A stretch of 64,000 nucleotides of DNA from Escherichia phage vB_Eco_F25, in the sequence record OP870144.1. One strand, given 5' to 3'. The translations under genes were made by a program, and so were the position numbers. Numbering within the stretch: the first letter of the stretch is position 1; every line of letters starts with the position of its first letter. This document shows positions 4,092-17,298 of this stretch, one piece after another. Below the pieces are notes generated by a model, which worked only from the letters and a program-made list of their open reading frames with translations, made no database searches and was not told the origin of the DNA.

Positions 4092-4655
4092 TTATTTATC
4101 TAGTTTAGTTATTATAGCTTCTGCGGCAGCTTTTAGCTTAGATGCGGTGTTAATACGATTTTTAATTTCAGTATACGCATCGCCAAGAACATCAAGGCTA
4201 TCAGAATAAACGCTTACACTATTGCGTTCGCTATTTGAAATAGAACCTTTAGTTTTACGATCAAAATCGATGTACACGTCTTGAAGATCACGGGCTGCCT
4301 TCTTTGCATCATCCAATGCATCAAGAGCTTTATTCAAAGCATTAACGTATTTTTTAGTGTCGAACATATTCTTAGAAATTTTAACAGGCGCACGTTCAGG
4401 AGTAGCTAAGGCAGATTTAGGAACCTGAGCGCCAGATGCCAGTTTCTTAGAAATTTTGAAAAATGCTTTATTGAATTTATTTTCTTGACTCATCGTAAAA
4501 GAACTATTATCAATGTTATACATTTCAATAGCTTTAGCTTTCCACTTAAGAAAATCGCCACGGTCTTTTGGGTCCAATTGGAAGAATACTTTAGTAAGTT
4601 CTGCTTCAGATGGTAATTTTGCTGCTTCGGTTAAAAATTCGGCATAGGTTTTCAT
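4092..4655 (-). CDS. Internal (head-packaged) protein with capsid-targeting sequence
   Basis: 187 aa; N-terminus MKTYAEFLTE|AAK matches T4 IP CTS with gp21 (L/I)xE cleavage motif; AAGGA SD. Confidence 0.7.
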   Translation of the reverse strand: MKTYAEFLTEAAKLPSEAELTKVFFQLDPKDRGDFLKWKAKAIEMYNIDNSSFTMSQENKFNKAFFKISKKLASGAQVPKSALATPERAPVKISKNMFDTKKYVNALNKALDALDDAKKAARDLQDVYIDFDRKTKGSISNSERNSVSVYSDSLDVLGDAYTEIKNRINTASKLKAAAEAIITKLDK

Positions 4656-4744
4656 TTAAAATCCTTGAAATAATTTATCGGTCAGTTATTAATTATTTAT
4701 TACTTTGTTATTATCCGTAACAGCATTCTCTATGCGATTCAAAC

Positions 4745-4773
4745 TAAAAAGCCCCAACCTTTCGGTCGAGGCT
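4745..4773 (-). terminator. Rho-independent terminator
   Basis: 10-bp GC-rich stem with GAAA loop then U5 on minus strand; near-identical copy at 5300..5328. Confidence 0.55.
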
Positions 4774-4780
4774 AAGAATG

Positions 4781-5254
4781 TTATTTGATTTGTTTAGCAG
4801 ACCAAATGCGGTCTTTGATGATTTTTTGGAGATCTTCAACATACTCTAGGTCATGAGCATGTGGATTATCTTTGAAACTATAGGCACGGGCTAATTTTTG
4901 GCCTTCGGTTTTAATTACTAAAAGCTCTTTAAGGATAGCTTCATATTTAGCGATAATTCCTTTAACAATATTTTTTTCTTGTGCAGCTTTAGGATCTGCT
5001 TTAGGAGCAGGTTTACCGGAAGGTTTTTCGAAAGCCGCACCAGTAGCAACCAGACTTTTCCAGGCGGTGGTAACATAGTTACCCACAAAGCCTTCAGCTC
5101 TCATATCGTCGTAGAACTTGTACCGGGATTCGTCAGAAGCATCTTTATAAGAATATTTACCAGATTTAATAGCAGCAGTTGCTACAGCGCGAACATCTGA
5201 AGCGGATGCTTCATTTAACACCGCTTCATTTAAAAATTGAGCATATGATTTCAT
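4781..5254 (-). CDS. Internal (head-packaged) protein with capsid-targeting sequence
   Basis: 157 aa; N-terminus MKSYAQFLNE|AVL; AGGAAA SD; late promoter immediately upstream. Confidence 0.7.
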   Translation of the reverse strand: MKSYAQFLNEAVLNEASASDVRAVATAAIKSGKYSYKDASDESRYKFYDDMRAEGFVGNYVTTAWKSLVATGAAFEKPSGKPAPKADPKAAQEKNIVKGIIAKYEAILKELLVIKTEGQKLARAYSFKDNPHAHDLEYVEDLQKIIKDRIWSAKQIK

Positions 5255-5290: not shown

Positions 5291-5298
5291 TATTTATA
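5291..5298 (-). promoter_or_regulatory. Late promoter TATAAATA
   Basis: Reverse complement reads TATAAATA about 35 nt upstream of the internal-protein gene start. Confidence 0.5.
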
Positions 5299-5299
5299 C

Positions 5300-5328
5300 T
5301 AAAAAGCCCCAACCTTTCGGTCGGGGCT
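5300..5328 (-). terminator. Rho-independent terminator after the tRNA/small-RNA cluster
   Basis: Minus-strand hairpin AGCCCCGACC-GAAA-GGUUGGGGCU followed by U5. Confidence 0.55.
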
Positions 5329-5379
5329 AAGCCTTGCGGCAACCTTGTCGGGGTTCCACCTGCTAAGGCAAGTGTTTGT

Positions 5380-5644: not shown

Positions 5645-5719
5645 TGGTATCCCGCCCTGGGATCGAACCAGGACCGCAAACTTAGAAGGATCGTATGCTA
5701 TCCATTACACCAGCGGGAC
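5645..5719 (-). tRNA. tRNA-Arg (anticodon TCT), CCA encoded
   Basis: Acceptor GTCCCGC/GCGGGAT, anticodon loop CTTCTAA, T-loop TTCGATC, 3' ACCA. Confidence 0.8.
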
Positions 5720-6341
5720 GTAATTTATTTAAAAGACAAGACAAATCGGAAATCTCATCTTTTTCTAAAACTACCAAATTTTCTAAAGCTTTCCATTTAC
5801 AAAGATCTCTATCTCTTTTATATCCTTTGACTTCTATATAAAAATCATAAGTGGGTAAATAAAAATCAGGAAAATAGAGATGTTCTGAACCTTCCCATTC
5901 GTAAGGAATTGGCTTTATTTTATTAGTATATTTGATATTGTGTTCTTTTAAAAACTTAGCAACTTTTAATTCCCAGGTCCCTTTAAATTTAAACCCGTCA
6001 AACTCATATGTTTTTACTCGACCAGAAACATTAGAAGCAGAATATGAATCAGGATTATCAAGAACAGCTTGCCGCATTCTTTTAGAATGTGCTTCTTTGC
6101 GTTCATTAGACCATACATATCCAGTATTGGCTTTTCTAAGTTTTTCTCTAGTTTTATCAGAGACTTTTATTTCTTTACCTAGTTCTTTGGCTTTGGTAAA
6201 TTGATTACTACCTTTAAGACCATAACGAGGGTTATTAGGGCCGCTCATATCTAATCTATTTGGGTTAGATTTGCACCGTTTTTCATGCTGCTTTAGTGAA
6301 TTTAAATTTTTACATTCTTTAGAACAATATTGACAAAGCAT
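5682..6341 (-). CDS. Free-standing putative homing endonuclease (Zn finger + NUMOD3-like repeats + PD-(D/E)XK-like motif)
   Basis: N-terminal CQYCSKEC...HEKRC; central SDKTREKLRKA / NERKEAHSKRMRQA; C-terminal FPDFYLP...YIEVKGY; second ATG has GGAG SD; last 12 codons and the stop lie inside tRNA-Arg. Confidence 0.65.
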   Translation of the reverse strand: MLCQYCSKECKNLNSLKQHEKRCKSNPNRLDMSGPNNPRYGLKGSNQFTKAKELGKEIKVSDKTREKLRKANTGYVWSNERKEAHSKRMRQAVLDNPDSYSASNVSGRVKTYEFDGFKFKGTWELKVAKFLKEHNIKYTNKIKPIPYEWEGSEHLYFPDFYLPTYDFYIEVKGYKRDRDLCKWKALENLVVLEKDEISDLSCLLNKLRPAGVMDSIRSF

Positions 6342-6410
6342 AATTTTCTCCATGAATTTTATATAGATATTTATTCATGGAGAAGTTGACTGCTCTACCT
6401 AATCAAAATA

Positions 6411-6490: not shown

Positions 6491-6548
6491 TGCTGATTGA
6501 CGGAATCGAACCGCAAGTGAGGTGCTCTACCTACTGAGCTAAATCAGC
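6491..6548 (-). pseudogene. Internally deleted tRNA-Thr-like remnant (about 57 nt)
   Basis: Perfect acceptor pair GCTGATT/AATCAGC, D-arm GCTC-AGTAGGTA-GAGC, anticodon 5' stem CCTCA + CTTG, then directly T-loop TTCGATT; only 72 nt lie between neighbouring tRNAs. Confidence 0.45.
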
Positions 6549-6556
6549 GAAATTAC

Positions 6557-6642
6557 GGAGGCGATAGGATTTGAACCTATGAGTCGCCGGAGCGACTGCC
6601 GGTTTTCAAGACCGGTGCATTAAACCACTCTGCCACGCCTCC
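6557..6642 (-). tRNA. tRNA-Ser (anticodon TGA)
   Basis: Acceptor GGAGGCG/CGCCTCC, anticodon stem CCGGT/ACCGG loop CTTGAAA, long variable arm, T-loop TTCAAAT. Confidence 0.85.
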
Positions 6643-6644
6643 AG

Positions 6645-6718
6645 TCTCCGCGGCAGGATTTGAACCTACGACATTCTGCTCCCAAAGCAGACGCTCTACC
6701 AAACTGAGCTACACGGAG
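6645..6718 (-). tRNA. tRNA-Pro (anticodon TGG)
   Basis: D-arm GCTC-AGTTTGGTA-GAGC, anticodon stem TCTGC/GCAGA loop TTTGGGA, T-loop TTCAAAT. Confidence 0.85.
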
Positions 6719-6730
6719 TAAATTAAATTT

Positions 6731-6802
<72 letters not shown>

Positions 6803-6811
6803 AAACTTTGG

Positions 6812-6895
6812 TACGAGAAGTGGGACTCGAACCCACAAGGAAATCATTCCGCAGCATTTTAAGTGCTGTGCCTTTACCAATTTGACCATTCTCGC
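6812..6895 (-). tRNA. tRNA-Leu (anticodon TAA), class II
   Basis: Anticodon stem CAGCA/TGCTG loop CTTAAAA, long variable arm, T-arm GTGGG-TTCGAGT-CCCAC. Confidence 0.85.
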
Positions 6896-6896
6896 G

Positions 6897-6969
6897 CTGG
6901 GAATAAAGGACTCGAACCTTTGCATCCTGGAATCAAAATCCAGTGCCTTACCAACTTGGCTAATTCCCA
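6897..6969 (-). tRNA. tRNA-Gln (anticodon TTG)
   Basis: Acceptor TGGGAAT/ATTCCCA, anticodon stem CTGGA/TCCAG loop TTTTGAT, T-arm AAAGG-TTCGAGT-CCTTT. Confidence 0.85.
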
Positions 6970-7038
6970 ATTATTAACAAAGGCTCTCAAGCAAGAACCC
7001 TTGATGATAGAGGGTATTAATCAGTGCGATATGAGTTA

Positions 7039-7064
7039 ATAATAACAAATAATTCTTAAAGCAT
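7039..7064 (-). promoter_or_regulatory. Possible MotA-dependent middle promoter for the tRNA cluster
   Basis: Minus strand: MotA-box-like ATGCTTTA, 12-nt spacer, TATTAT; about 70 nt upstream of tRNA-Gln. Confidence 0.3.
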
Positions 7065-7066
7065 AT

Positions 7067-7360
7067 TTACCATTTATGATAATACATGTTTACGATGCAT
7101 TCAAGACCCAAAGGATTCTTGAAAATATCATATTCAAGAGGACCTTTTTCTGTTTCGATAAAGAAATCAAAATTTACTGTATTAAATTTACGGTCTTCCT
7201 TTACTAATTTAACTTGAGAAGATGAACGGTCAATGTAAACCTTTTCAACTTCAAAACATGTTAAAATGCCATAATCATCAATCAAGGCTTTAGCTGCTTC
7301 TTGATCATATTTATATCCATTTTCAACGGATGATACTTTCGCATAAAGAATCATCATCAA
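7067..7360 (-). CDS. Hypothetical protein
   Basis: 97-aa ORF, overlaps upstream gene end (coupling). Confidence 0.55.
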   Translation of the reverse strand: MMMILYAKVSSVENGYKYDQEAAKALIDDYGILTCFEVEKVYIDRSSSQVKLVKEDRKFNTVNFDFFIETEKGPLEYDIFKNPLGLECIVNMYYHKW

Positions 7361-7767
7361 CCTCTATCAACAATAGCATGAGTATGGGCATTTACGATTT
7401 GCCACCAGTCGAAACGATTAGAACCATATTCTGGTTTATTTTCATTTTCTTTAATGATATCACGCAGTTTATCTTCTGTTTCAGCATACGCAATTAAATC
7501 ATCATATCCACCACAAGGGTAATAATTATCACCCGCGAATAAAAGAAAATTTACCTTAGATGGATTTACGTAATAATGGTCTTTAGGATATTTAGTTCCT
7601 CTCCAATCAGTTACTTCAACATAACGGTAAGAAAATCCATTTTTACTTTCAATCCAACTCCACGCTTCAAAAGGAGTATTAAAAACTTTATCAGGTATTA
7701 AATTACCTTCAAAATGAGAAGGATTTGCATAATCCCCAGCATAAACATAATATTCGTTAATATTCAT
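7357..7767 (-). CDS. Hypothetical protein
   Basis: 136-aa ORF, aromatic-rich, no recognised motif. Confidence 0.6.
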   Translation of the reverse strand: MNINEYYVYAGDYANPSHFEGNLIPDKVFNTPFEAWSWIESKNGFSYRYVEVTDWRGTKYPKDHYYVNPSKVNFLLFAGDNYYPCGGYDDLIAYAETEDKLRDIIKENENKPEYGSNRFDWWQIVNAHTHAIVDRG

Positions 7768-7953
7768 TTATTCACCTTTAGAAATTTTATCCATAACAAT
7801 AGCGATTAAACCAATTAAAAATGCTACTACAAGTGAAAAAACATTTTCTGCTGTAGTCAATAATCCACATATAAATCCAACAAACATTGAAAAACTAAAA
7901 GCGGAAGCAGAAATTGCAATAGCAGCATTTCGAATTAATTCACAGCGTTTCAT
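7768..7953 (-). CDS. Small two-helix membrane protein
   Basis: Track ORF starts at TTG; ATG (MKRCELIRN...) with GGAG SD; two hydrophobic helices. Confidence 0.55.
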   Translation of the reverse strand: MKRCELIRNAAIAISASAFSFSMFVGFICGLLTTAENVFSLVVAFLIGLIAIVMDKISKGE

Positions 7954-7998
7954 TTTATTCTCCAATCACTCATTTGTTTTGATAGGGTAATAGTATCA
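7951..7998 (-). repeat. 48-bp promoter/5'-UTR cassette, copy A
   Basis: Exact 48-mer cattttattctccaatcactcatttgttttgatagggtaatagtatca, identical to 8670..8717; includes SD and start codon. Confidence 0.6.
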
Positions 7999-8019
7999 CA
8001 CTACTACCCAGAAGTAAAC
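7990..8019 (-). promoter_or_regulatory. T4-type early promoter (GTTTAC-N17-ATACTAT)
   Basis: Minus-strand GTTTAC + 17 nt + ATACTAT upstream of 7768..7953. Confidence 0.4.
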
Positions 8020-8030
8020 TGTTTTATAAA

Positions 8031-8339
8031 CTATTTTATTCCGCGTGATGCAATTGTGTTCTGCCGTTTAACACCAGTTTGTTTAAAGTCATGATTGTCG
8101 ATTTGATCAGTACGAGCAACTCCGAATGATGATTTGATCTTAGCTTTAGATCCTTTAGTTATAGAAATAAACATCTCGGAAGCCCCTTTCTTAAAGTCCG
8201 AGGCGATTACTTCAACGCCGTTCTTAGCAAGTGACTTCAGAATTGCCTCTGCATACTCATCGTCAAGACTCGTCTGAGTATTAATAACGAATGTCTTTGG
8301 CGCAGCCGCTTCATTGATAAATTCTTTAAATGTTTTCAT
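8031..8339 (-). CDS. Internal-protein-like small protein with capsid-targeting N-terminus
   Basis: 102 aa; MKTFKEFINE|AAAP; at the position T4 uses for ipI (between tRNAs and 57B). Confidence 0.65.
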   Translation of the reverse strand: MKTFKEFINEAAAPKTFVINTQTSLDDEYAEAILKSLAKNGVEVIASDFKKGASEMFISITKGSKAKIKSSFGVARTDQIDNHDFKQTGVKRQNTIASRGIK

Positions 8340-8369
8340 TTTATTTTCCTAATTAATTTTGATGAGATA

Positions 8370-8399
8370 ATAGTACCACAACCCTATTTAAAAGTAAAC
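8370..8399 (-). promoter_or_regulatory. T4-type early promoter (GTTTAC-N17-GTACTAT)
   Basis: Minus-strand GTTTAC + 17 nt + GTACTAT upstream of 8031..8339. Confidence 0.4.
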
Positions 8400-8672
8400 T
8401 CATTTTAAATAAATTGCGTATTTTTTATAACCCGCTGACTCATGACGAAGACCCTTATCATTAGCAAAACGCTCAATGTTATTAATTTGATTCTGGTCAA
8501 GTTCAGAGATGTCAAACACGAAAAAGTTACGTTTGTTACCAACTGTTACATAGTCAGTTAAATCAATATCATATAGGTAATTGATGTCAGCAATCAAAGT
8601 CTTGACAGCTTTGCTAATTTTTACTTTTTCGTTAAAAGCAGCTTCATTGATAAATTCTTTAAATGTTTTCAT
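8400..8672 (-). CDS. Internal-protein-like small protein with capsid-targeting N-terminus
   Basis: Track ORF starts at TTG; ATG gives MKTFKEFINE|AAF; GGAG SD. Confidence 0.65.
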   Translation of the reverse strand: MKTFKEFINEAAFNEKVKISKAVKTLIADINYLYDIDLTDYVTVGNKRNFFVFDISELDQNQINNIERFANDKGLRHESAGYKKYAIYLK

Positions 8673-8717
8673 TTTATTCTCCAATCACTCATTTGTTTTG
8701 ATAGGGTAATAGTATCA
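8670..8717 (-). repeat. 48-bp promoter/5'-UTR cassette, copy B
   Basis: Exact copy of 7951..7998. Confidence 0.6.
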
Positions 8718-8739
8718 TAACTAAAACCCCGTGTAAATA
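8710..8739 (-). promoter_or_regulatory. T4-type early promoter (ATTTAC-N17-ATACTAT)
   Basis: Minus-strand ATTTAC + 17 nt + ATACTAT upstream of 8400..8672. Confidence 0.35.
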
Positions 8740-8750
8740 ACTTTGTGAAA

Positions 8751-9447
<697 letters not shown>

Positions 9448-9448
<1 letters not shown>

Positions 9449-10173
9449 TATAGTACCTTTAGTGTATTTTTAATTTTAGAAAAAAGTTCTTCAAGAGAAC
9501 CATCGTTTGTAATTACTAAATCACCATCACGAATTGGCAATCCAGCTTCTGTAATATGAGTATCATTGGATTTTTGACCAGGACGAACTACATGAATTAC
9601 TGTAGCACCCATCGCCCTAGCCGCATCCATTTCATGATCTTGACGAGTATCAGGAACGATATAATAATCATAACCTGAGTTAAATTTATCAAGATAATCT
9701 AAAGCAAATAATTTTACCCAATACATGCGGTCGAAGTTATTAACAATCAAATCCGTACCTAGGGCTTGCATCAGACGACGGACTGACCATTGATCTTCAA
9801 TATTATTTATAACGTCAATAATCTTGTTAAATGCTACGGAATTAACTGATTCTTGTCCTTCGTCATCAAAAACAAACACGCCTTTAATTGGGCTTTTACT
9901 ATTAAGATAGCAAAATGCTTGTTCCATAATCGTGATTACTTCTGATTTAGTCAGATTTAAATTAGTCTCACGATCATAGTCAATTCCTTCAAACTCTTTG
10001 CGAGTTAAGCAAGGATAGTCAGTGTTTTCTGCAAATACACCCCATGCATAAGCCAATGCATCTTTAATAGGACCAGCAAGTTGATATTTAACTGCAGAAT
10101 AATTATTCATGATAAAATCTGCAGTAGTATCTTTTCCACTGCGCTTTACACCACTTAAAAAGATTAGTTTCAT
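9448..10173 (-). CDS. 1: Deoxynucleoside monophosphate kinase gp1
   Basis: 241 aa; P-loop GVKRSGKDT; T4 gp1 length and order. Confidence 0.95.
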
Positions 10174-10222
10174 ATGTTTCTCCTCAAATTTAGTTAAGAT
10201 TATAACACATGAAACTGAAGCA

Positions 10223-10753
10223 TTAAACTTCTGCTATAATTTTGCCATCTTTTTCTACTTGAAAATACGTATAAGGAATCGTTGCTGTACATACTAAAGC
10301 TGGGTCTGAATCTTCAGTGTAGCTAAATTCTACTTCAGACAGGTCAGAAACCCAAGGCTTATAAAAATTTATTGACATCACGATTTCAGTTTTACTATTA
10401 TCTAAAATGTAAAGCGTAATGTATTCAGGACCTGTTTTTTGGGCAGTATTTTCGCCTGTGAGATAGTTGCTAGTTCCTAGCATCCATTCATACATTCCTA
10501 TCCACGACTTAAGCTCTTCATCAACTATAAATCTCACGATGAGTGGATCGTACTCAAATGTAACACCTGGACGTTGTGCTCGTCCTAGTCCAAACGGCCC
10601 AGTCACGGTATCAGTAACAGGTATCCTAATTCCTGGAATAGGAACTGACTGAGCATTTAAAGTAAAAGCAGATGTAGTATTACTATGCGGTATTGATACT
10701 ACAAAGTTAGTTGTATTTGCTTGGTTAAAAATTTGTTGTAGTGCTTGCGACAT
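10223..10753 (-). CDS. 3: Tail completion / sheath stabiliser gp3
   Basis: Track ORF 203 aa; ATG at 10753 (MSQALQQ...) gives 176 aa as in T4 gp3. Confidence 0.8.
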   Translation of the reverse strand: MSQALQQIFNQANTTNFVVSIPHSNTTSAFTLNAQSVPIPGIRIPVTDTVTGPFGLGRAQRPGVTFEYDPLIVRFIVDEELKSWIGMYEWMLGTSNYLTGENTAQKTGPEYITLYILDNSKTEIVMSINFYKPWVSDLSEVEFSYTEDSDPALVCTATIPYTYFQVEKDGKIIAEV

Positions 10754-10859
10754 ATATTCCTCATAATGCTTTATAAATGTTGGTGGTATAATGGGTCTAA
10801 GTCCCTTCCATTCAATTCCAATTAGAACAAACAATAGAAAAGAATGGAAGATAATAGAA

Positions 10860-11684
10860 TTAGATATTTGACCAGACTTTGTTTGCAGAGAAACGTTTTC
10901 CTTTTGAAACGAACTGCTGAAGTGGCATTAACACAACGTTCGCCCAGTCTTTCGGGGCGATTTCAACTAGGCTACCCATAATATTACCAGGTATATATGC
11001 CTTAATCATTTGGTCTGCACCCCTAAATCCTTTCACTTGACTCCAATCAATTTTTAATTTCGTTTTATTAGTAATAGTAGGTGTATTTGAATATTGCTTT
11101 AAAAGCTCTTCTAGAAACTGTTGACGAGCTTTAGGTGGAATATAGTGCAAGTTCAATCCGTACATTAAATTATGTTTACCTAAACCGAGGTAAATTATCA
11201 AAGGAAATTTATCCCAATAAGGAAGAGTTTCTTTGTGTTTAGCATCGTAAGCAAAAGCATATATTCGTCCCGGCTGAGGGCGAACAACTTTATGTCCTTT
11301 TACCTGCTTAATAGTTTCAGCAAACCACTTTCTGGTTTTATTATTAATTGCTGCACCTTCATTACGAATTTTATCACGCAATGTTTGCCTGAATGAATTT
11401 ATCATAAGCAGTTGTCTTTCTTGCTTATTGAGTTTATTCATTGGTTTTGATTCAAGCTTTTGAATCTTTTCAGCCGTTTTAATTCCTGAAGCATATTTTG
11501 ACATTGCTGAAGTAAACGTAGAGTATTTGATTCCTCTTTCTTCAGCAAATTGCTTTCCTGTCATTCCTTTTGCTTTGGCCTTTTTGTATTCAAGACCTAT
11601 CTGAATCCATTTCTTTTCGTTTAATGATTGCTTAACCTTTGGAACTTGGGGAGTGCTTTCATTAATTATTTGAAAAATAGCCAT
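10860..11684 (-). CDS. 2: DNA end protector gp2
   Basis: 274 aa, T4 gp2 length and position between genes 3 and 4. Confidence 0.85.
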
Positions 11685-12136
11685 TATGCCCCCTTAAAGC
11701 CAAGAGCTCGTAATCCATCTTCTGTTAAAATTCTAAATTTTATTCCACGCTTTTCAGCTAAAGCTTGAGCTGCTTTCCATTTGTCAGTATTAACTGAATA
11801 TGTATAAATTTCATTCATAAATCTTTTCTTCGCTGCGGTTGTTAGATGTGCTGGTTTAACTGGTGGTTGTGTTTCTTTTTTAGGCTTTATTTCAATAAAA
11901 AATTCTTGTCCAGAAGAATCTTTCATCCAAATATCCATGAAGTATCTACGTTTTTTCCCTTCTGCATTACAAAAATAAGGAATTACTGCTGTTTCACTAC
12001 CCCATGCAATAATTTCTGGATTTTTATCTAACCATTCAAAAAAGAATTTTTCCCAATTTGATCTATACGTAATTTTTTTAGGGTCACCTCTATATTTTGA
12101 TATATTTTTAGGAACCCATTTTCCAGAATATGCCAT
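11684..12136 (-). CDS. 4: Head completion protein gp4
   Basis: 150 aa, T4 gp4 length and position; late promoter upstream. Confidence 0.85.
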
Positions 12137-12147
12137 TGGATTCTCCT

Positions 12148-12170
12148 TATAAATAGATAATATATTTATA
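12148..12170. promoter_or_regulatory. Divergent late promoters for genes 53 (+) and 4 (-)
   Basis: TATAAATA on + strand at 12148-12155 and on - strand (tatttata) at 12163-12170. Confidence 0.55.
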
Positions 12171-12183
12171 AACAGGAGGGCCC

Positions 12184-12774
12184 ATGCTCTTTACATTTTT
12201 TGATCCGATTGAATATGCGGCCAAAACGGTGAATAAAAACGCGCCGACTATTCCTATGACAGATATTTTTAGAAACTATAAAGACTATTTCAAACGCGCT
12301 CTTGCGGGATATCGCTTACGTACTTATTATATTAAAGGTTCACCACGCCCGGAAGAATTAGCAAATGCTATATATGGAAATCCGCAGTTGTATTGGGTTT
12401 TATTGATGTGTAATGATAATTATGATCCGTATTATGGATGGATTACTTCGCAAGAAGCTGCTTATCAAGCATCTATACAAAAATACAAAAATGTAGGTGG
12501 AGACCAAATAGTATATCACGTGAATGAGAATGGTGAAAAATTTTATAATTTAATATCATACGATGATAATCCGTATGTTTGGTATGACAAAGGTGATAAA
12601 GCTAGAAAATATCCTCAATATGAAGGAGCTCTTGCTGCGGTCGATACGTATGAAGCTGCTGTTCTTGAAAATGAAAAACTTCGTCAAATAAAAATAATAG
12701 CAAAATCAGACATCAATTCATTTATGAACGACCTTATACGTATAATGGAGAAATCTTATGGAAATGATAAGTAA
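12184..12774 (+). CDS. 53: Baseplate wedge protein gp53
   Basis: 196 aa, T4 gp53 length and position before gene 5. Confidence 0.9.
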   Translation: MLFTFFDPIEYAAKTVNKNAPTIPMTDIFRNYKDYFKRALAGYRLRTYYIKGSPRPEELANAIYGNPQLYWVLLMCNDNYDPYYGWITSQEAAYQASIQKYKNVGGDQIVYHVNENGEKFYNLISYDDNPYVWYDKGDKARKYPQYEGALAAVDTYEAAVLENEKLRQIKIIAKSDINSFMNDLIRIMEKSYGNDK

Positions 12775-14485
12775 TAACCTCAATTGGTTTGTTGGTGTTG
12801 TTGAAGATAGAATGGACCCATTAAAATTAGGTCGTGTTCGTGTTCGCGTGGTTGGTCTGCATCCACCCCAAAGAGCGCAAGGCGACGTAATGGGTATTCC
12901 AACCGATAAATTACCATGGATGTCAGTTATTCAACCGATAACTTCTGCAGCAATGTCTGGAATTGGAGGTTCCGTTACTGGTCCGGTAGAAGGAACTAGA
13001 GTTTATGGTCATTTTTTAGACAAATGGAAAACTAACGGAATTGTCCTTGGCACTTATGGCGGAATAGTTCGCGAAAAGCCTAATAGACTTGAAGGATTTT
13101 CTGACCCGACTGGACAGTATCCTAGACGTCTAGGAAATGATACTAACGTATTAAACCAAGGCGGAGAAGTAGGATATGATTCGTCTTCTAATATTATTCA
13201 AGATAGTAATCTAGACACTGCGATAAATCCTGATGATAGACCGCTATCAGAGATTCCAACTGATGATAATCCAAATATGTCAATGGCTGAAATGCTTCGC
13301 CGTGATGAAGGATTAAGACTAAAAGTTTATTGGGATACCGAAGGATATCCGACAATTGGTATTGGTCATCTTATCATGAAGCAACCAGTTCGTGATATGA
13401 CCCAAATTAATAAAGTTTTATCAAAACAAGTTGGTCGTGAAATTACCGGAAATCCAGGTTCTATTACAATGGAAGAAGCGGTAACTTTATTTGAACGCGA
13501 TTTGGCTGATATGCAACGTGACATTAAATCACATTCTAAAGTTGGCCCAGTTTGGCAAGCAGTTAATCGTTCTCGTCAAATGGCGTTAGAAAATATGGCA
13601 TTCCAAATGGGTGTTGGCGGTGTAGCTAAATTTAACACAATGTTAACTGCTATGTTAGCCGGAGATTGGGAAAAAGCATATAAAGCCGGTCGTGATTCAT
13701 TGTGGTATCAACAAACAAAAGGCCGTGCATCCCGTGTTACCATGATTATTCTTACAGGTAATTTGGAATCATACGGTATTGAAGTTAAAACACCAGCTAG
13801 GTCTTTGTCAGCAATGGCTGCTACCGTAGCAAAGTCTTCTGACCCGGCCGATCCTCCTATTCCGAATGATTCGAGAATTTTATTCAAAGAACCTGTTTCT
13901 TCATATAAAGGTGAATATCCGTATGTTCACACAATGGAAACTGAAAGCGGTCATATTCAGGAATTTGATGATACCCCTGGACAAGAACGATACAGATTAG
14001 TTCATCCGACTGGAACGTATGAGGAAGTATCACCATCAGGAAGAAGAACGAGAAAAACTGTTGATAATTTGTATGATATAACAAATGCTGATGGTAATTT
14101 TTTAGTAGCCGGCGATAAAAAGACTAACGTCGGTGGATCAGAAATTTATTACAACATGGATAATCGTCTTCACCAAATAGATGGAAGCAACACAATATTT
14201 GTGCGTGGCGATGAAACTAAGACAGTTGAAGGTAATGGAACTATCCTAGTTAAAGGTAATGTTACTATTGTAGTTGAAGGTAATGCTGACATTACAGTTA
14301 AAGGGGATGCTACCACTTTGGTTGAAGGAAATCAAACTAATACAGTAAATGGAAATCTTTCTTGGAAAGTTGCTGGGACAGTTGATTGGGACGTTGGTGG
14401 TGATTGGACAGAAAAAATGGCATCTATGAGTTCTATTTCATCTGGTCAATACACAATTGATGGATCGAGGATTGACATTGGCTAA
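12758..14485 (+). CDS. 5: Baseplate hub / cell-puncturing spike with lysozyme domain gp5
   Basis: 575 aa; internal lysozyme domain MAEMLRRDEGLRLKVYWDTEGYPTIGIGHLI; C-terminal VxGxxxxx beta-helix repeats. Confidence 0.95.
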   Translation: MEMISNNLNWFVGVVEDRMDPLKLGRVRVRVVGLHPPQRAQGDVMGIPTDKLPWMSVIQPITSAAMSGIGGSVTGPVEGTRVYGHFLDKWKTNGIVLGTYGGIVREKPNRLEGFSDPTGQYPRRLGNDTNVLNQGGEVGYDSSSNIIQDSNLDTAINPDDRPLSEIPTDDNPNMSMAEMLRRDEGLRLKVYWDTEGYPTIGIGHLIMKQPVRDMTQINKVLSKQVGREITGNPGSITMEEAVTLFERDLADMQRDIKSHSKVGPVWQAVNRSRQMALENMAFQMGVGGVAKFNTMLTAMLAGDWEKAYKAGRDSLWYQQTKGRASRVTMIILTGNLESYGIEVKTPARSLSAMAATVAKSSDPADPPIPNDSRILFKEPVSSYKGEYPYVHTMETESGHIQEFDDTPGQERYRLVHPTGTYEEVSPSGRRTRKTVDNLYDITNADGNFLVAGDKKTNVGGSEIYYNMDNRLHQIDGSNTIFVRGDETKTVEGNGTILVKGNVTIVVEGNADITVKGDATTLVEGNQTNTVNGNLSWKVAGTVDWDVGGDWTEKMASMSSISSGQYTIDGSRIDIG

Positions 14486-15014
14486 TATACTTCCAATGAG
14501 CGCTGATTTAGGAGAATCCATGGAAGGTTCTTCTATCGACGTCACCTTTACCGCTCAATTAGAAACAGGTGAAACGTTAGTATCTATAAATATAACTAGT
14601 TACGAAGAAACTCCTGGGGTTTTAGTAGAAGAAAATCGTTTATATGGAACGTATGAATCTGTGTTTGGATTTGGAAATGACGCATTGAAATATCGTTTAG
14701 ATAATGAATTTAAAACTGCCGCTTCATGGGAAGACCTTCCAACTGATTCTAATACTCAGTTATATCTATGGAAAGCTCCTCAAAACCTCCAGAAGACATT
14801 CACTTATGAAGTAACATTAATATATGACTACCAAGAACAAAGTGAATCTGGAGGTTCTGGCAGTAATTCTAGGTCATCTTCTGATACTACTGAACCAACC
14901 GATCCTCCTGCTCCAATAAGAAAAACTCTTGTTAAAAATTACACAAAAACTATAGTTGGAAATTGGAGTCGTTGGGCTAATAAATTGAGAAGCTACGTAT
15001 ATGAGAGGCAATAA
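14460..15014 (+). CDS. 5.1: gp5.1-position protein
   Basis: ORF between 5 and 5.4; track start is TTG, ATG 3 nt downstream. Confidence 0.65.
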
Positions 15015-15307
15015 TGTCAGGATTAAGTTATGATAAGTGTGTTACTGCTGGCCATGAAGCATGGCCTCCAACAGTTGTGAATGCTACACAAAGTAAAGTA
15101 TTCACTGGAGGAATTGCTGTTCTCGTAGCAGGTGATCCAATTACAGAACATACAGAAATTAAAAAGCCATATGAAACACATGGCGGAGTGACACAACCTA
15201 GAACTTCTAAGGTATATGTCACTGGAAAGAAAGCTGTTCAAATGGCTGATCCAATATCATGTGGTGATACTGTGGCTCAGGCATCATCTAAAGTATTCAT
15301 TAAATAG
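15014..15307 (+). CDS. 5.4: PAAR-repeat spike tip protein gp5.4
   Basis: 97 aa as T4 gp5.4; Gly/Val-rich PAAR-like composition; position after gene 5. Confidence 0.8.
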
Positions 15308-15315
15308 GATTCAAA

Positions 15316-17298
15316 ATGGCAAATACCCCTGTAAATTATCAATTAACAAGAACAGCAAATGCTATTCCCGAGATATTCGTCGGGGGTACATTTGCTGAAA
15401 TAAAACAAAACCTCATTGAATGGCTTAATGGTCAAAATGAATTTTTGGATTATGATTTTGAAGGCTCAAGATTAAACGTTCTGTGTGACCTTTTAGCTTA
15501 TAATACATTATACATTCAGCAGTTTGGTAATGCTGCCGTATATGAAAGCTTTATGCGTACTGCTAACTTACGTAGTTCAGTAGTTCAAGCGGCGCAAGAT
15601 AATGGATATTTACCTACTTCAAAATCAGCTGCTCAAACTGAAATTATGCTAACTTGTACAGACGCATTGAATAGAAATTACATTACTATTCCTCGTGGTA
15701 CTCGCTTTTTAGCATATGCAAAAGATACTTCTGTTAATCCTTATAACTTTGTCTCTACCGAAGATGTTATTGCTATTCGTGATAAAAATAACCAGTATTT
15801 TCCACGTTTAAAATTAGCCCAGGGACGTATAGTAAGAACTGAAATCATTTATGATAAATTAACACCTATTATCATTTATGACAAAAATATAGATAGAAAC
15901 CAAGTTAAACTATACGTTGATGGAGCAGAATGGATTAACTGGACAAGAAAGTCAATGGTTCATGCTGGTTCTACATCAACAATTTACTACATGCGTGAAA
16001 CTATTGATGGAAATACTGAATTTTATTTTGGTGAAGGTGAGATTTCTGTTAACGCGGCAGAAGGAGCATTGACCGCTAATTATATTGGAGGTCTTAAACC
16101 TACCCAGAACTCTACGATTGTTATTGAGTACATCAGTACTAACGGTGCAGATGCGAATGGTGCAGTCGGATTTTCATACGCAGATACATTAACAAATATA
16201 ACTGTCATCAATATTAACGAAAATCCAAATGATGACCCAGATTTTGTTGGGGCAGATGGCGGCGGCGATCCAGAAGATATTGAGCGTATTCGCGAATTGG
16301 GTACTATTAAACGCGAAACCCAGCAACGCTGCGTAACTGCAACCGACTATGATACATTCGTCTCAGAAAGATTCGGTTCTATTATTCAAGCGGTTCAGAC
16401 TTTCACTGATTCTACTAAACCTGGTTATGCATTTATTGCTGCTAAACCTAAATCAGGACTATATTTAACTACTGTACAACGTGAAGATATTAAAAATTAT
16501 CTAAAAGATTATAATTTAGCTCCTATTACACCATCAATTATTTCTCCTAATTATCTTTTTGTTAAGACTAATTTAAAAGTCACATATGCTTTAAATAAGC
16601 TGCAAGAATCAGAACAGTGGCTAGAAGGTCAAATAATTGATAAAATTGATCGTTATTATACCGAAGACGTAGAAATTTTTAATTCATCTTTCGCTAAATC
16701 TAAGATGTTGACATATGTAGATGATGCAGATCATTCTATTATTGGCTCATCGGCGACAATTCAGATGGTACGTGAAGTACAAAACTTCTATAAAACGCCT
16801 GAAGCGGGTATTAAATACAATAATCAAATAAAAGATCGTTCTATGGAATCTAATACGTTTTCATTTAATTCCGGACGAAAGGTTGTAAATCCTGATACTG
16901 GCTTAGAAGAAGATGTATTATATGACGTTCGTATAGTATCAACAGACCGAGATTCTAAAGGAATTGGTAAAGTTATTATTGGTCCATTTGCTTCGGGTGA
17001 TGTTACAGAAAATGAAAACATTCAGCCATATACAGGCAATGATTTTAATAAATTAGCAAGTTCCGATGGACGTGACAAATACTATGTTATCGGTGAAATA
17101 AATTATCCAGCTGACATGATTTATTGGAATATCGCTAAAATTAATTTAACATCTGATAAATTTGAGGTTCAGACTATTGAGCTATATTCTGATCCAATAG
17201 ACGATGTTATTTTCACGCGCGATGGTTCACTGATTGTATTTGAAAATGATTTACGTCCACAATACTTAACTATCGATTTGGAGCCTATATCACAATGA
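15316..17298 (+). CDS. 6: Baseplate wedge protein gp6
   Basis: 660 aa, T4 gp6 length and order. Confidence 0.9.
   Translation: MANTPVNYQLTRTANAIPEIFVGGTFAEIKQNLIEWLNGQNEFLDYDFEGSRLNVLCDLLAYNTLYIQQFGNAAVYESFMRTANLRSSVVQAAQDNGYLPTSKSAAQTEIMLTCTDALNRNYITIPRGTRFLAYAKDTSVNPYNFVSTEDVIAIRDKNNQYFPRLKLAQGRIVRTEIIYDKLTPIIIYDKNIDRNQVKLYVDGAEWINWTRKSMVHAGSTSTIYYMRETIDGNTEFYFGEGEISVNAAEGALTANYIGGLKPTQNSTIVIEYISTNGADANGAVGFSYADTLTNITVININENPNDDPDFVGADGGGDPEDIERIRELGTIKRETQQRCVTATDYDTFVSERFGSIIQAVQTFTDSTKPGYAFIAAKPKSGLYLTTVQREDIKNYLKDYNLAPITPSIISPNYLFVKTNLKVTYALNKLQESEQWLEGQIIDKIDRYYTEDVEIFNSSFAKSKMLTYVDDADHSIIGSSATIQMVREVQNFYKTPEAGIKYNNQIKDRSMESNTFSFNSGRKVVNPDTGLEEDVLYDVRIVSTDRDSKGIGKVIIGPFASGDVTENENIQPYTGNDFNKLASSDGRDKYYVIGEINYPADMIYWNIAKINLTSDKFEVQTIELYSDPIDDVIFTRDGSLIVFENDLRPQYLTIDLEPISQ

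Follow-up and report, generated by a model that had tools for sequence, protein, structure and literature searches.

Why should a phage carry the same 51 bp of regulatory DNA at both ends of a pair of accessory genes? The question is raised by a locus of Escherichia phage vB_Eco_F25 (OP870144.1), of which a stretch of 64,000 nucleotides (hereafter the window) was analysed. The window is that of a Tequatrovirus; the best GenBank records found by megablast are ~96% identical to it and none is identical. The site is the classical ipI locus, which runs on the minus strand from 57B (Acb1) to trna.4, and here it holds two genes for internal proteins (IPs) of the Ip9 and Ip7 types. We consider it probable that the two copies of the repeat form the core, from the -10 box through the transcription start and leader to the start codon, that two early promoter/leader elements of the T4 type have in common, and that they have both a regulatory and a recombinational role: each copy would help to express the gene that it heads, and the pair would provide the homology through which the Ip9-Ip7 module can be lost or gained. 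A natural relative, Salmonella phage vB_SenS_Jbel, has a single copy of the repeat in place of the bracketed module.

The initial annotation had described an exact direct repeat of 48 bp around the ip-like genes. On recomputation this 48-mer was indeed exact at 7951-7998 and 8670-8717 and nowhere else in the window, where no further copy was found with up to three mismatches allowed and where zero matches are expected by chance (100 shuffles). Extension of the match by three bases, the AAA codon after the ATG, gives a repeat of 51 bp whose copies lie 719 bp apart (Table 1) and which is the longest exact repeat of the window. Read on the minus strand, each copy has the form TGA-TACTAT(-10)-TACCCTATCAAAACAAATGAGTGATT-GGAG(SD)-AATAAA-ATG-AAA, SD being the Shine-Dalgarno sequence. 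Identity ends on the coding side at the gene-specific codons (ATGAAA followed by CGC vs. ACA) and on the other side with a G vs. A difference, one base ahead of the TGA before the -10 box. Of the two, the upstream copy stands before the first ip gene and the downstream one before trna.4, which comes first past the module; the copies thus supply the -10 region, SD and ATG-AAA of two different genes, as originally proposed.

That recombination between the copies would excise the enclosed genes had also been predicted, and the predicted product exists. An in silico deletion product, in which window positions 7800-7998 were joined to 8718-8900, was searched against the phages of GenBank, the collection from which all our close comparisons are drawn. 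Jbel (PP942088.1) matched the whole of it (100%) without a break and at 99.7% identity, and Jbel carries exactly one 51-mer. By blastn, window positions 6514-7998 align with Jbel 6721-8199 and window positions 8667-16899 with Jbel 8149-16382, the two alignments overlapping in Jbel by exactly 51 nt, that is, by one repeat copy. The Jbel element is identical to the window's Ip9 upstream region and is followed directly by trna.4. When the module is excluded, a single mismatch separates the two phages over window positions 7689-9213, a junction island of ~800 nt; the wider flanks are 96.6% (left) and 98.3% (right) identical. About 46 differences, including a 6-nt indel, fall in 7327-7688 within trna.3, where a sharp mosaic boundary adjoins the near-identical island. 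Judged by these alignments, the junction island of the window and that of Jbel have a recent common origin, and exactly one repeat-bounded unit sets the two phages apart, a pattern characteristic of homologous exchange inside the repeat.

Table 1. Features of the ipI locus and of its bracketing repeat in the window (position 1 is the first nucleotide of the window).
Feature	Positions	Strand	Remarks
Unit absent from Jbel (719 bp)	7999-8717	minus	One repeat copy, Ip9, gamma element, Ip7 and the -35 part of the trna.4 promoter
Repeat copy heading the Ip9-like gene	8667-8717	minus	Exact 51-bp match to 7948-7998
Parts of the Ip9-side copy	TACTAT 8714-8709; SD GGAG 8682-8679; ATG-AAA 8672-8667	minus	Leader of ~30 nt
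Repeat copy heading trna.4	7948-7998	minus	Exact 51-bp match to 8667-8717
Parts of the trna.4-side copy	TACTAT 7995-7990; SD GGAG 7963-7960; ATG-AAA 7953-7948	minus	Leader between TACTAT and SD
Nested 38-nt exact repeat, Ip9 copy	8641-8678	minus	AATAAA-ATG plus capsid-targeting codons; partner at 333 nt
Nested 38-nt exact repeat, Ip7 copy	8308-8345	minus	
-35 of the Ip9 promoter, ATTTACA	8732-8738	minus	57B-proximal sequence context, beyond the repeat
-35 of the trna.4 promoter, GTTTAC	8014-8019	minus	Context after Ip7, beyond the repeat
Third, diverged promoter/leader (gamma), heading the Ip7-like gene	8340-8399	minus	Pattern match
Ip9-like internal head protein gene, 90 aa	8400-8672	minus	phrog_7673 'internal head protein', E 1e-54; RB32 Ip9 orthologue
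Ip7-like internal head protein gene, 102 aa	8031-8339	minus	phrog_2667 'internal head protein', E 5e-41; RB32 Ip7 orthologue
trna.4, predicted membrane protein, 61 aa	7768-7953	minus	First gene past the module; phrog_1692
57B / Acb1 anti-CBASS phosphodiesterase	8751-9206	minus	Upstream border of the ip locus; PF23474, E 2.6e-60

What the repeat contains bears on what it might do. The initial annotation placed an early promoter in each copy, and this stands for the -10 box, the leader, the SD and the ATG. The -35 (ATTTAC or GTTTAC) was found 18 nt upstream of each -10 box, beyond the repeat, so that each copy is only a partial promoter. At the Ip9 copy, a promoter scan gave the -35 TTTACA, a 17-nt spacer and TACTAT with TG upstream; the T4 early-promoter consensus has GTTTAC at -36 to -31 (PMC1524935). 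The gamma element before Ip7 is 72% identical to the flanking elements and consists of GTTTAC (8399-8394), 18 nt, TACTAT (8375-8370), a different leader of the type seen before T4 ipI, and the SD AGGA. At the homologous sites of T4, the annotation of X03016.1 gives early promoters PE2 before ipI and PE1 before ORF2 (trna.4), each overlapping a 'potential stem-loop', that of PE1 being labelled 'potential IpI terminator'; NC_000866 and AF158101, the reference records of T4, have no promoter features. The SD block GGAGAATAAAA of both copies (7960-7963 and 8679-8682, each with the following 7 nt) is a perfect fit to GGAGRAYARAA, the consensus of strong RegB cleavage sites (PMC3014915). Given that the Ip7 leader has AGGA in place of GGAG, the ip and trna.4 genes may differ in their sensitivity to RegB. 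Promoter activity, transcription start and RegB cleavage at the copies are suggested by consensus and homology.

Comparison of 30 distinct elements from 18 genomes showed how such elements are built. The -35 (GTTTAC/ATTTAC), the 18-nt spacer and TACTAT have the same arrangement in 30/30; TTTAC-N18-TAYWRT and a -10-proximal block GTGATACTATTACCCTATCAA are common to them, and an SD-start block GGAGAATAAAATGAAA occurs in most. Between the -10-proximal and SD-start blocks lies a variable leader of four types: alpha (CTACTGA), which is usual for trna.4, beta (AACAAATGAGTGATT), beta-prime, and gamma, the type of T4 ipI and of Ip7. In most relatives the trna.4 leader is 8 nt shorter than that of the window. 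The Ip9-Ip7 module recurs in at least 14 phages of GenBank that have beta before Ip9 and alpha before trna.4, which leaves the homology broken into 21 + 16 nt; in the window trna.4 is beta-led as well, hence the exact bracket of 51 bp. No other beta/beta arrangement was found among the GenBank records examined. The exact 51-mer is present in 16 records, once in each within the ip locus; SF2-1 and SYGD1 show a second place for it, but their trna.4 is alpha-led. The beta leader holds an upstream ORF (open reading frame) of seven codons (ATGAGTGATTGGAGAATAAAATGA), for which a role in translational coupling was envisaged but dropped, as the beta-prime variant reads ATG-TGA.

The content of the locus varies from zero to four cassettes in sequenced relatives. 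There are none in Jbel, bov9_1, bov10K1, PTE-Eco15, A6-6 and 11B_SA_NWU, one in T4, ESh33, G4507 and G2540, two in the window phage, 132, teqdroes, T6, T2, JK08 and RB9, three in RB32, G4498 and 310Ecol104PP, and four in UFV-AREG1. Across an evenly spaced sample of ~40 records, the spans correspond by approximate arithmetic mostly to one or two cassettes. The related cassettes that the initial annotation led one to expect in other T4-like genomes are therefore present, and several are bracketed in the same manner: exact brackets of 44-55 nt, running from the -10 box to ATGAAA, were found in 4/15 other ip-bearing relatives and in four sequence variants. RB32 has 44 nt (alpha) around Ip9-Ip7, 310Ecol104PP has 44 nt (alpha-prime) around three cassettes, teqdroes has 55 nt (beta-prime) around an ip gene of 77 aa, and UFV-AREG1 has brackets of 47 and 54 nt. 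The remaining genomes have shorter brackets only, such as the 22-nt ATTTCACAAAGTTGTTTACATA around T4 ipI, and there are chimeric promoters whose left half is of one type and right half of another. These shorter brackets and chimeras indicate exchange at several conserved blocks and not at one site.

Outside the close relatives, a scan of metagenomes gave a single divergent contig, OERM01001946.1, with an element at 932-982; in IMG/VR no close relatives were found: identity in the trna.3 protein search did not exceed 65%, and there was no match to the exact 48-mer. A beta leader with at most two changes precedes trna.4 in distant phages (Dhakavirus FB, the OERM01001946.1 contig, JS98 and JS10), where the DNA of the trna.4 region is only ~78% identical. 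A 96%-identical element also lies upstream of a thioredoxin gene ~18 kb away in several Tequatrovirus genomes. The beta leader is more conserved than the genes that it serves and is dispersed to other loci.

The likeness to the promoter early stem-loop (PeSL) elements of other T4-type phages, to which the initial annotation had referred the repeat, depends in part on whether a stem-loop is present. The trna.4 element folds GGGUAGUAGUG/UACUAUUACCC around its -10 box. A complete inverted repeat flanks the -10 box, in two common registers, in 17/30 elements (for example GATGAGGTA/TACCTCATC, GATAGGGTA/TACCCTATC and GATAGAACT/AGTTCTATC) and in none of the window's three; the 17 are not above the null obtained by permutation of the right arm (15.7 +/- 1.4). 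Covariation of the stem is modest, with 13 double-sided changes against 5.9 +/- 2.2 in shuffles, and it is not significant in register 2. RNA-fold z-scores of the three intergenic regions of the locus were -1.47, +1.70 and -1.95, and a promoter and terminator scan found no intrinsic terminator in them. The G/C-tract stem of the RB49/phi1 PeSL (GGGG...CCCC) is absent from the elements. As far as folding and covariation can tell, the stem-loop component of a PeSL appears weak at best here.

In the explanation that we prefer, each copy of the repeat would drive immediate-early expression of its gene, and RegB cleavage at the SD block would inactivate the mRNA shortly after infection. Being identical, in direct orientation and 719 bp apart, the copies would at the same time offer portable homology to the general recombination and replication machinery of the phage, with no need of a dedicated recombinase. 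A crossover between them would remove, or conversely install, the Ip9-Ip7 module and leave one intact promoter/leader before trna.4; because one promoter/leader would always be left, expression of the neighbouring gene would never be broken. A further crossover, in the nested 38-nt repeat, could remove Ip9 alone, in frame. The same process would shuffle ip cassettes among T-even phages through several conserved blocks (the -35 context, the -10 box, the SD-ATG block and the capsid-targeting codons), and recombination or gene conversion would keep the flanking elements of one genome identical. Recombination between homologies of 6-10 bp is known to give deletions and amplifications in T4 in the laboratory, ipIII having been lost in this way (PMC9391042), and the crossovers at the PeSL of RB49 and phi1 map from the -10 box to the SD/ATG (PMC2839356).

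Several considerations weigh against this explanation. The event that separates the window from Jbel would fit a deletion in the Jbel lineage as well as an insertion or conversion in the window lineage; every outgroup is at most 97% identical over the junction island, too distant to polarise the event. Loss in Jbel is weakly hinted at by the module being as divergent from other GenBank copies (at most 96.5% identity) as its flanks are, and by the parsimony of a series leading from beta/alpha through beta/beta to a single beta. The repeat could also be a mere by-product of cassette insertion and not something kept for recombination, its role in this phage being deduced from sequence comparison. 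Finally, since the beta leader has been kept in distant phages, its conservation is in part due to functional constraint and not to recent copying.

It is possible, if rather doubtful, that within a genome the elements at the two ends of the array are made identical again and again by gene conversion, a form of concerted evolution. Matched end pairs are seen as beta/beta in the window, alpha/alpha in RB32, a private alpha-prime pair in 310Ecol104PP and beta-prime/beta-prime in teqdroes. The alpha-prime element (ACACTATC) is present full-length and exact in one of 50,697 records, that of 310Ecol104PP, and twice there; such a private pair argues for copying or conversion within a lineage. If concerted evolution does operate, the array would keep renewing long perfect homology and would amount to a self-maintaining, recombinase-free 'integron' for injected anti-restriction proteins.

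Alternatively, the repeat could be a passive scar, the footprint of an insertion of Ip9-Ip7 upstream of trna.4 by recombination in the resident promoter/leader, the donor being either a circular intermediate or, in an ectopic exchange, a co-infecting phage, and with no ongoing role. Such a footprint would account for identity that stops exactly where the cassette-specific -35 context and the coding sequences start, and the pairing of beta with trna.4 in distant genera fits a duplicated resident element. However, a scar origin would not really exclude the explanation preferred here: whatever its origin, a 51-bp repeat is a substrate in a phage that recombines on 6-10-bp homologies (PMC9391042), and Jbel documents exchange. 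We regard a purely passive history as improbable. Pure regulatory conservation, in which promoter strength, timing and a leader with its RegB site were selected in common and recombination played no part, gains from the fit of the SD block to the RegB consensus, from the beta leader that precedes trna.4 with two changes where the coding sequence is only ~78% identical, and from the 96%-identical element before thioredoxin genes elsewhere in other genomes. Yet the alpha leader on trna.4 in the 14 or more Ip9-Ip7-trna.4 phages of GenBank means that identity is not required, the within-genome pairs come in four sequence variants of which one is private to a single genome, and the Jbel indel is bounded exactly by the repeat; we think this account slightly less plausible even than a scar. 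Least credible of all is mobility of the integron or homing kind, with cassette exchange driven by a dedicated enzyme that recognises the element or the stem-loop in it. The candidates would be endonuclease VII, working on a cruciform, a homing enzyme of the Seg/Mob type, or the endonuclease-like ORF at 5682-6353 (phrog_15137, E 1e-40), which lies ~1.4 kb from trna.4 and is absent from Jbel; in favour are also the inverted repeats around the -10 box of 17/30 elements and the speculation of Arbiol et al. (PMC2839356) on a protein that binds the stem-loop. Against such mobility, the locus has no integrase or recombinase gene, junctions fall in various blocks (-35 context, -10 box, SD-ATG, capsid-targeting codons) and not at one site, and the stem-loop covariation is not significant.

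The genes around the repeat place it firmly at the ipI locus. On the minus strand, gene 1 (dNMP, i.e., deoxynucleoside monophosphate, kinase; 9448-10173), 57A (9206-9448) and 57B are followed by the ip ORFs, and past these come the trna.4 ORF, homologues of trna.3 and trna.2 and seven tRNA genes, the locus lying upstream of the tRNA cluster. The T4 equivalent is 57B-ipI-trna.4-trna.3-trna.2-tRNAs, and the order 1-57A-57B-[ip genes]-trna.4-trna.3-trna.2-tRNAs is common to the window, T4 and 17 relatives. The window's trna.4 is nearly identical to that of T4 in sequence and position, and 57B has the same position as in T4. The enclosed genes had been called ip-like, which their phrog matches and their counterparts in RB32 confirm (Table 1). 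Both ip ORFs begin with the capsid-targeting leader MKTFKEFINEA (pattern MKT[YF][QK]EF..E/A, the slash marking the cleavage point), and this leader with its I-N-E/A cleavage-type motif marks the Ip9- and Ip7-like proteins as candidates for packaging into the capsid, cleavage by the prohead protease and injection. No ORF of an integrase or recombinase family was found in or adjoining the ip locus. 57B is labelled 'RNA ligase' in many records; here it has a full-length match to Acb1, and the variable ip array therefore adjoins another anti-defence gene.

Two further observations concern the neighbourhood. Inside gene 1, a T4 late-promoter consensus TATAAATA lies at 9804-9811 on the minus strand, upstream of 57A-57B-Ip9-Ip7, and no terminator was detected between it and Ip9-Ip7; such a promoter could give late read-through transcripts for the Ip9 and Ip7 virion proteins. 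Within the tRNA cluster, an endonuclease-family ORF of 223 aa (5682-6353, minus strand; phrog_15137, E 1e-40, and a weak match to Pfam Phage_endo_I) overlaps tRNA-Arg at its 3' end, and Jbel has tRNA-Asn and tRNA-Tyr at that place. From its matches and its position, which is comparable to that of T4 segB, it looks like a free-standing insertion of the homing-endonuclease type.

Each of the T4 proteins Ip1, Ip2 and Ip3 acts as inhibitor of one particular GmrSD type IV restriction enzyme (PMC12373910), and the internal proteins of the present locus are probably anti-restriction proteins. Since T4 internal proteins block GmrSD enzymes, the ip array is probably a determinant of host range. The window and Jbel are a clear natural case of the gain or loss of a two-gene anti-defence module in one step, via a 51-bp regulatory repeat and with the expression of the neighbour left intact, and the repeat pair provides a concrete substrate for gauging how fast T-even phages remodel their arsenal. 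A third IP-like cassette locus may exist beyond the two classical IP loci. Two paralogous ORFs on the minus strand (4092-4655, 187 aa; 4781-5254, 157 aa), both of phrog_2280 'unknown function', start with capsid-targeting-like leaders (MKTYAEFLTEAA and MKSYAQFLNEAV), and a near-identical GC-rich hairpin with a T-run stands before each (4737-4776 and 5292-5331). Their 25 best GenBank matches are labelled only 'hypothetical protein', and Jbel has the 157-aa ORF only. The leaders and the hairpins, which resemble true terminators, are the basis for this suggestion.

Several known systems resemble the arrangement described here. Closest is the polymorphism of the T-even ipI locus, exemplified by RB32, with which the window shares the 57B-trna.4 locus, the Ip9-Ip7 module, the capsid-targeting leaders, a T4 early promoter/leader for each cassette and the direct-repeat bracket. 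The GenBank record of RB32 describes Ip7 and Ip9 as 'flanked by 43 bp direct repeat', which we measured as 44 bp. In every sequence feature compared (locus, leader, bounding repeats and varying content) the window agrees with a T-even ipI cassette array. It differs from RB32 in that its bracket is the longer beta variant of 51 bp and not the 44-bp alpha one, and in that a precise single-copy partner, Jbel, has been identified for it. As cited in later work (PMC2839356, PMC4122927), Repoila, Tetart, Bouet and Krisch (1994) saw sequences resembling PeSL at both of the variable IP loci and proposed that IPs are shuffled.

The PeSL of RB49/phi1 (Arbiol et al., 2010; PMC2839356) and of PST/T4 and nt-1/KVP40 (Comeau et al., 2014; PMC4122927) are likewise intergenic composites of an AT-rich stretch, -35, -10, SD and ATG, repeated around non-essential genes in a hyperplastic region, with element-bounded indels between close relatives and crossovers located in the stretch from the -10 box to the ATG. 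A PeSL is further characterised by a stable stem-loop that works as a terminator or attenuator of transcription and by the excision of mini-circles in infected cells. At the level of consensus the same layout is present here (AT-rich upstream, (G/A)TTTAC, 18 nt, TACTAT, GGAG, ATG), and an indel between two close relatives, the window and Jbel, is bounded by the elements. Unlike PeSL, the window's elements are of the T4-early type and have no G/C-rich stem, a weak stem and no detected terminator. This agrees with Arbiol et al. (2010; PMC2839356), who regarded the T-even IP elements, with their T4 early promoters and weaker AT-rich stems, as analogues and not homologues of PeSL. The PeSL comparison of the initial annotation thus survives for the element-bounded indels and for the promoter/SD/ATG layout, and is not supported for common descent, for a terminator or for a strong inverted repeat.

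In T4, recombination at short direct repeats likewise removes or amplifies accessory anti-defence genes, ip genes among them (Srikant et al., 2022; PMC9391042). In that case the homologies were fortuitous, 6-10 bp long and exploited under laboratory selection, whereas here the homology is a regulatory element of 51 bp that recurs across natural genomes. Integron arrays, too, hold small, swappable, promoter-proximal accessory (anti-defence) genes in variable number, but the window has neither an integrase nor attC/attI sites and has a promoter of its own for each cassette; the exchange is best explained by general homologous recombination. The shuffling of ip cassettes at this T-even locus is known, its principle having been described in 1994 and 2010, and the present case is neither a new mechanism nor a true member of PeSL. 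New are the 51-bp beta/beta variant of the bracket and its natural single-copy partner in Jbel.

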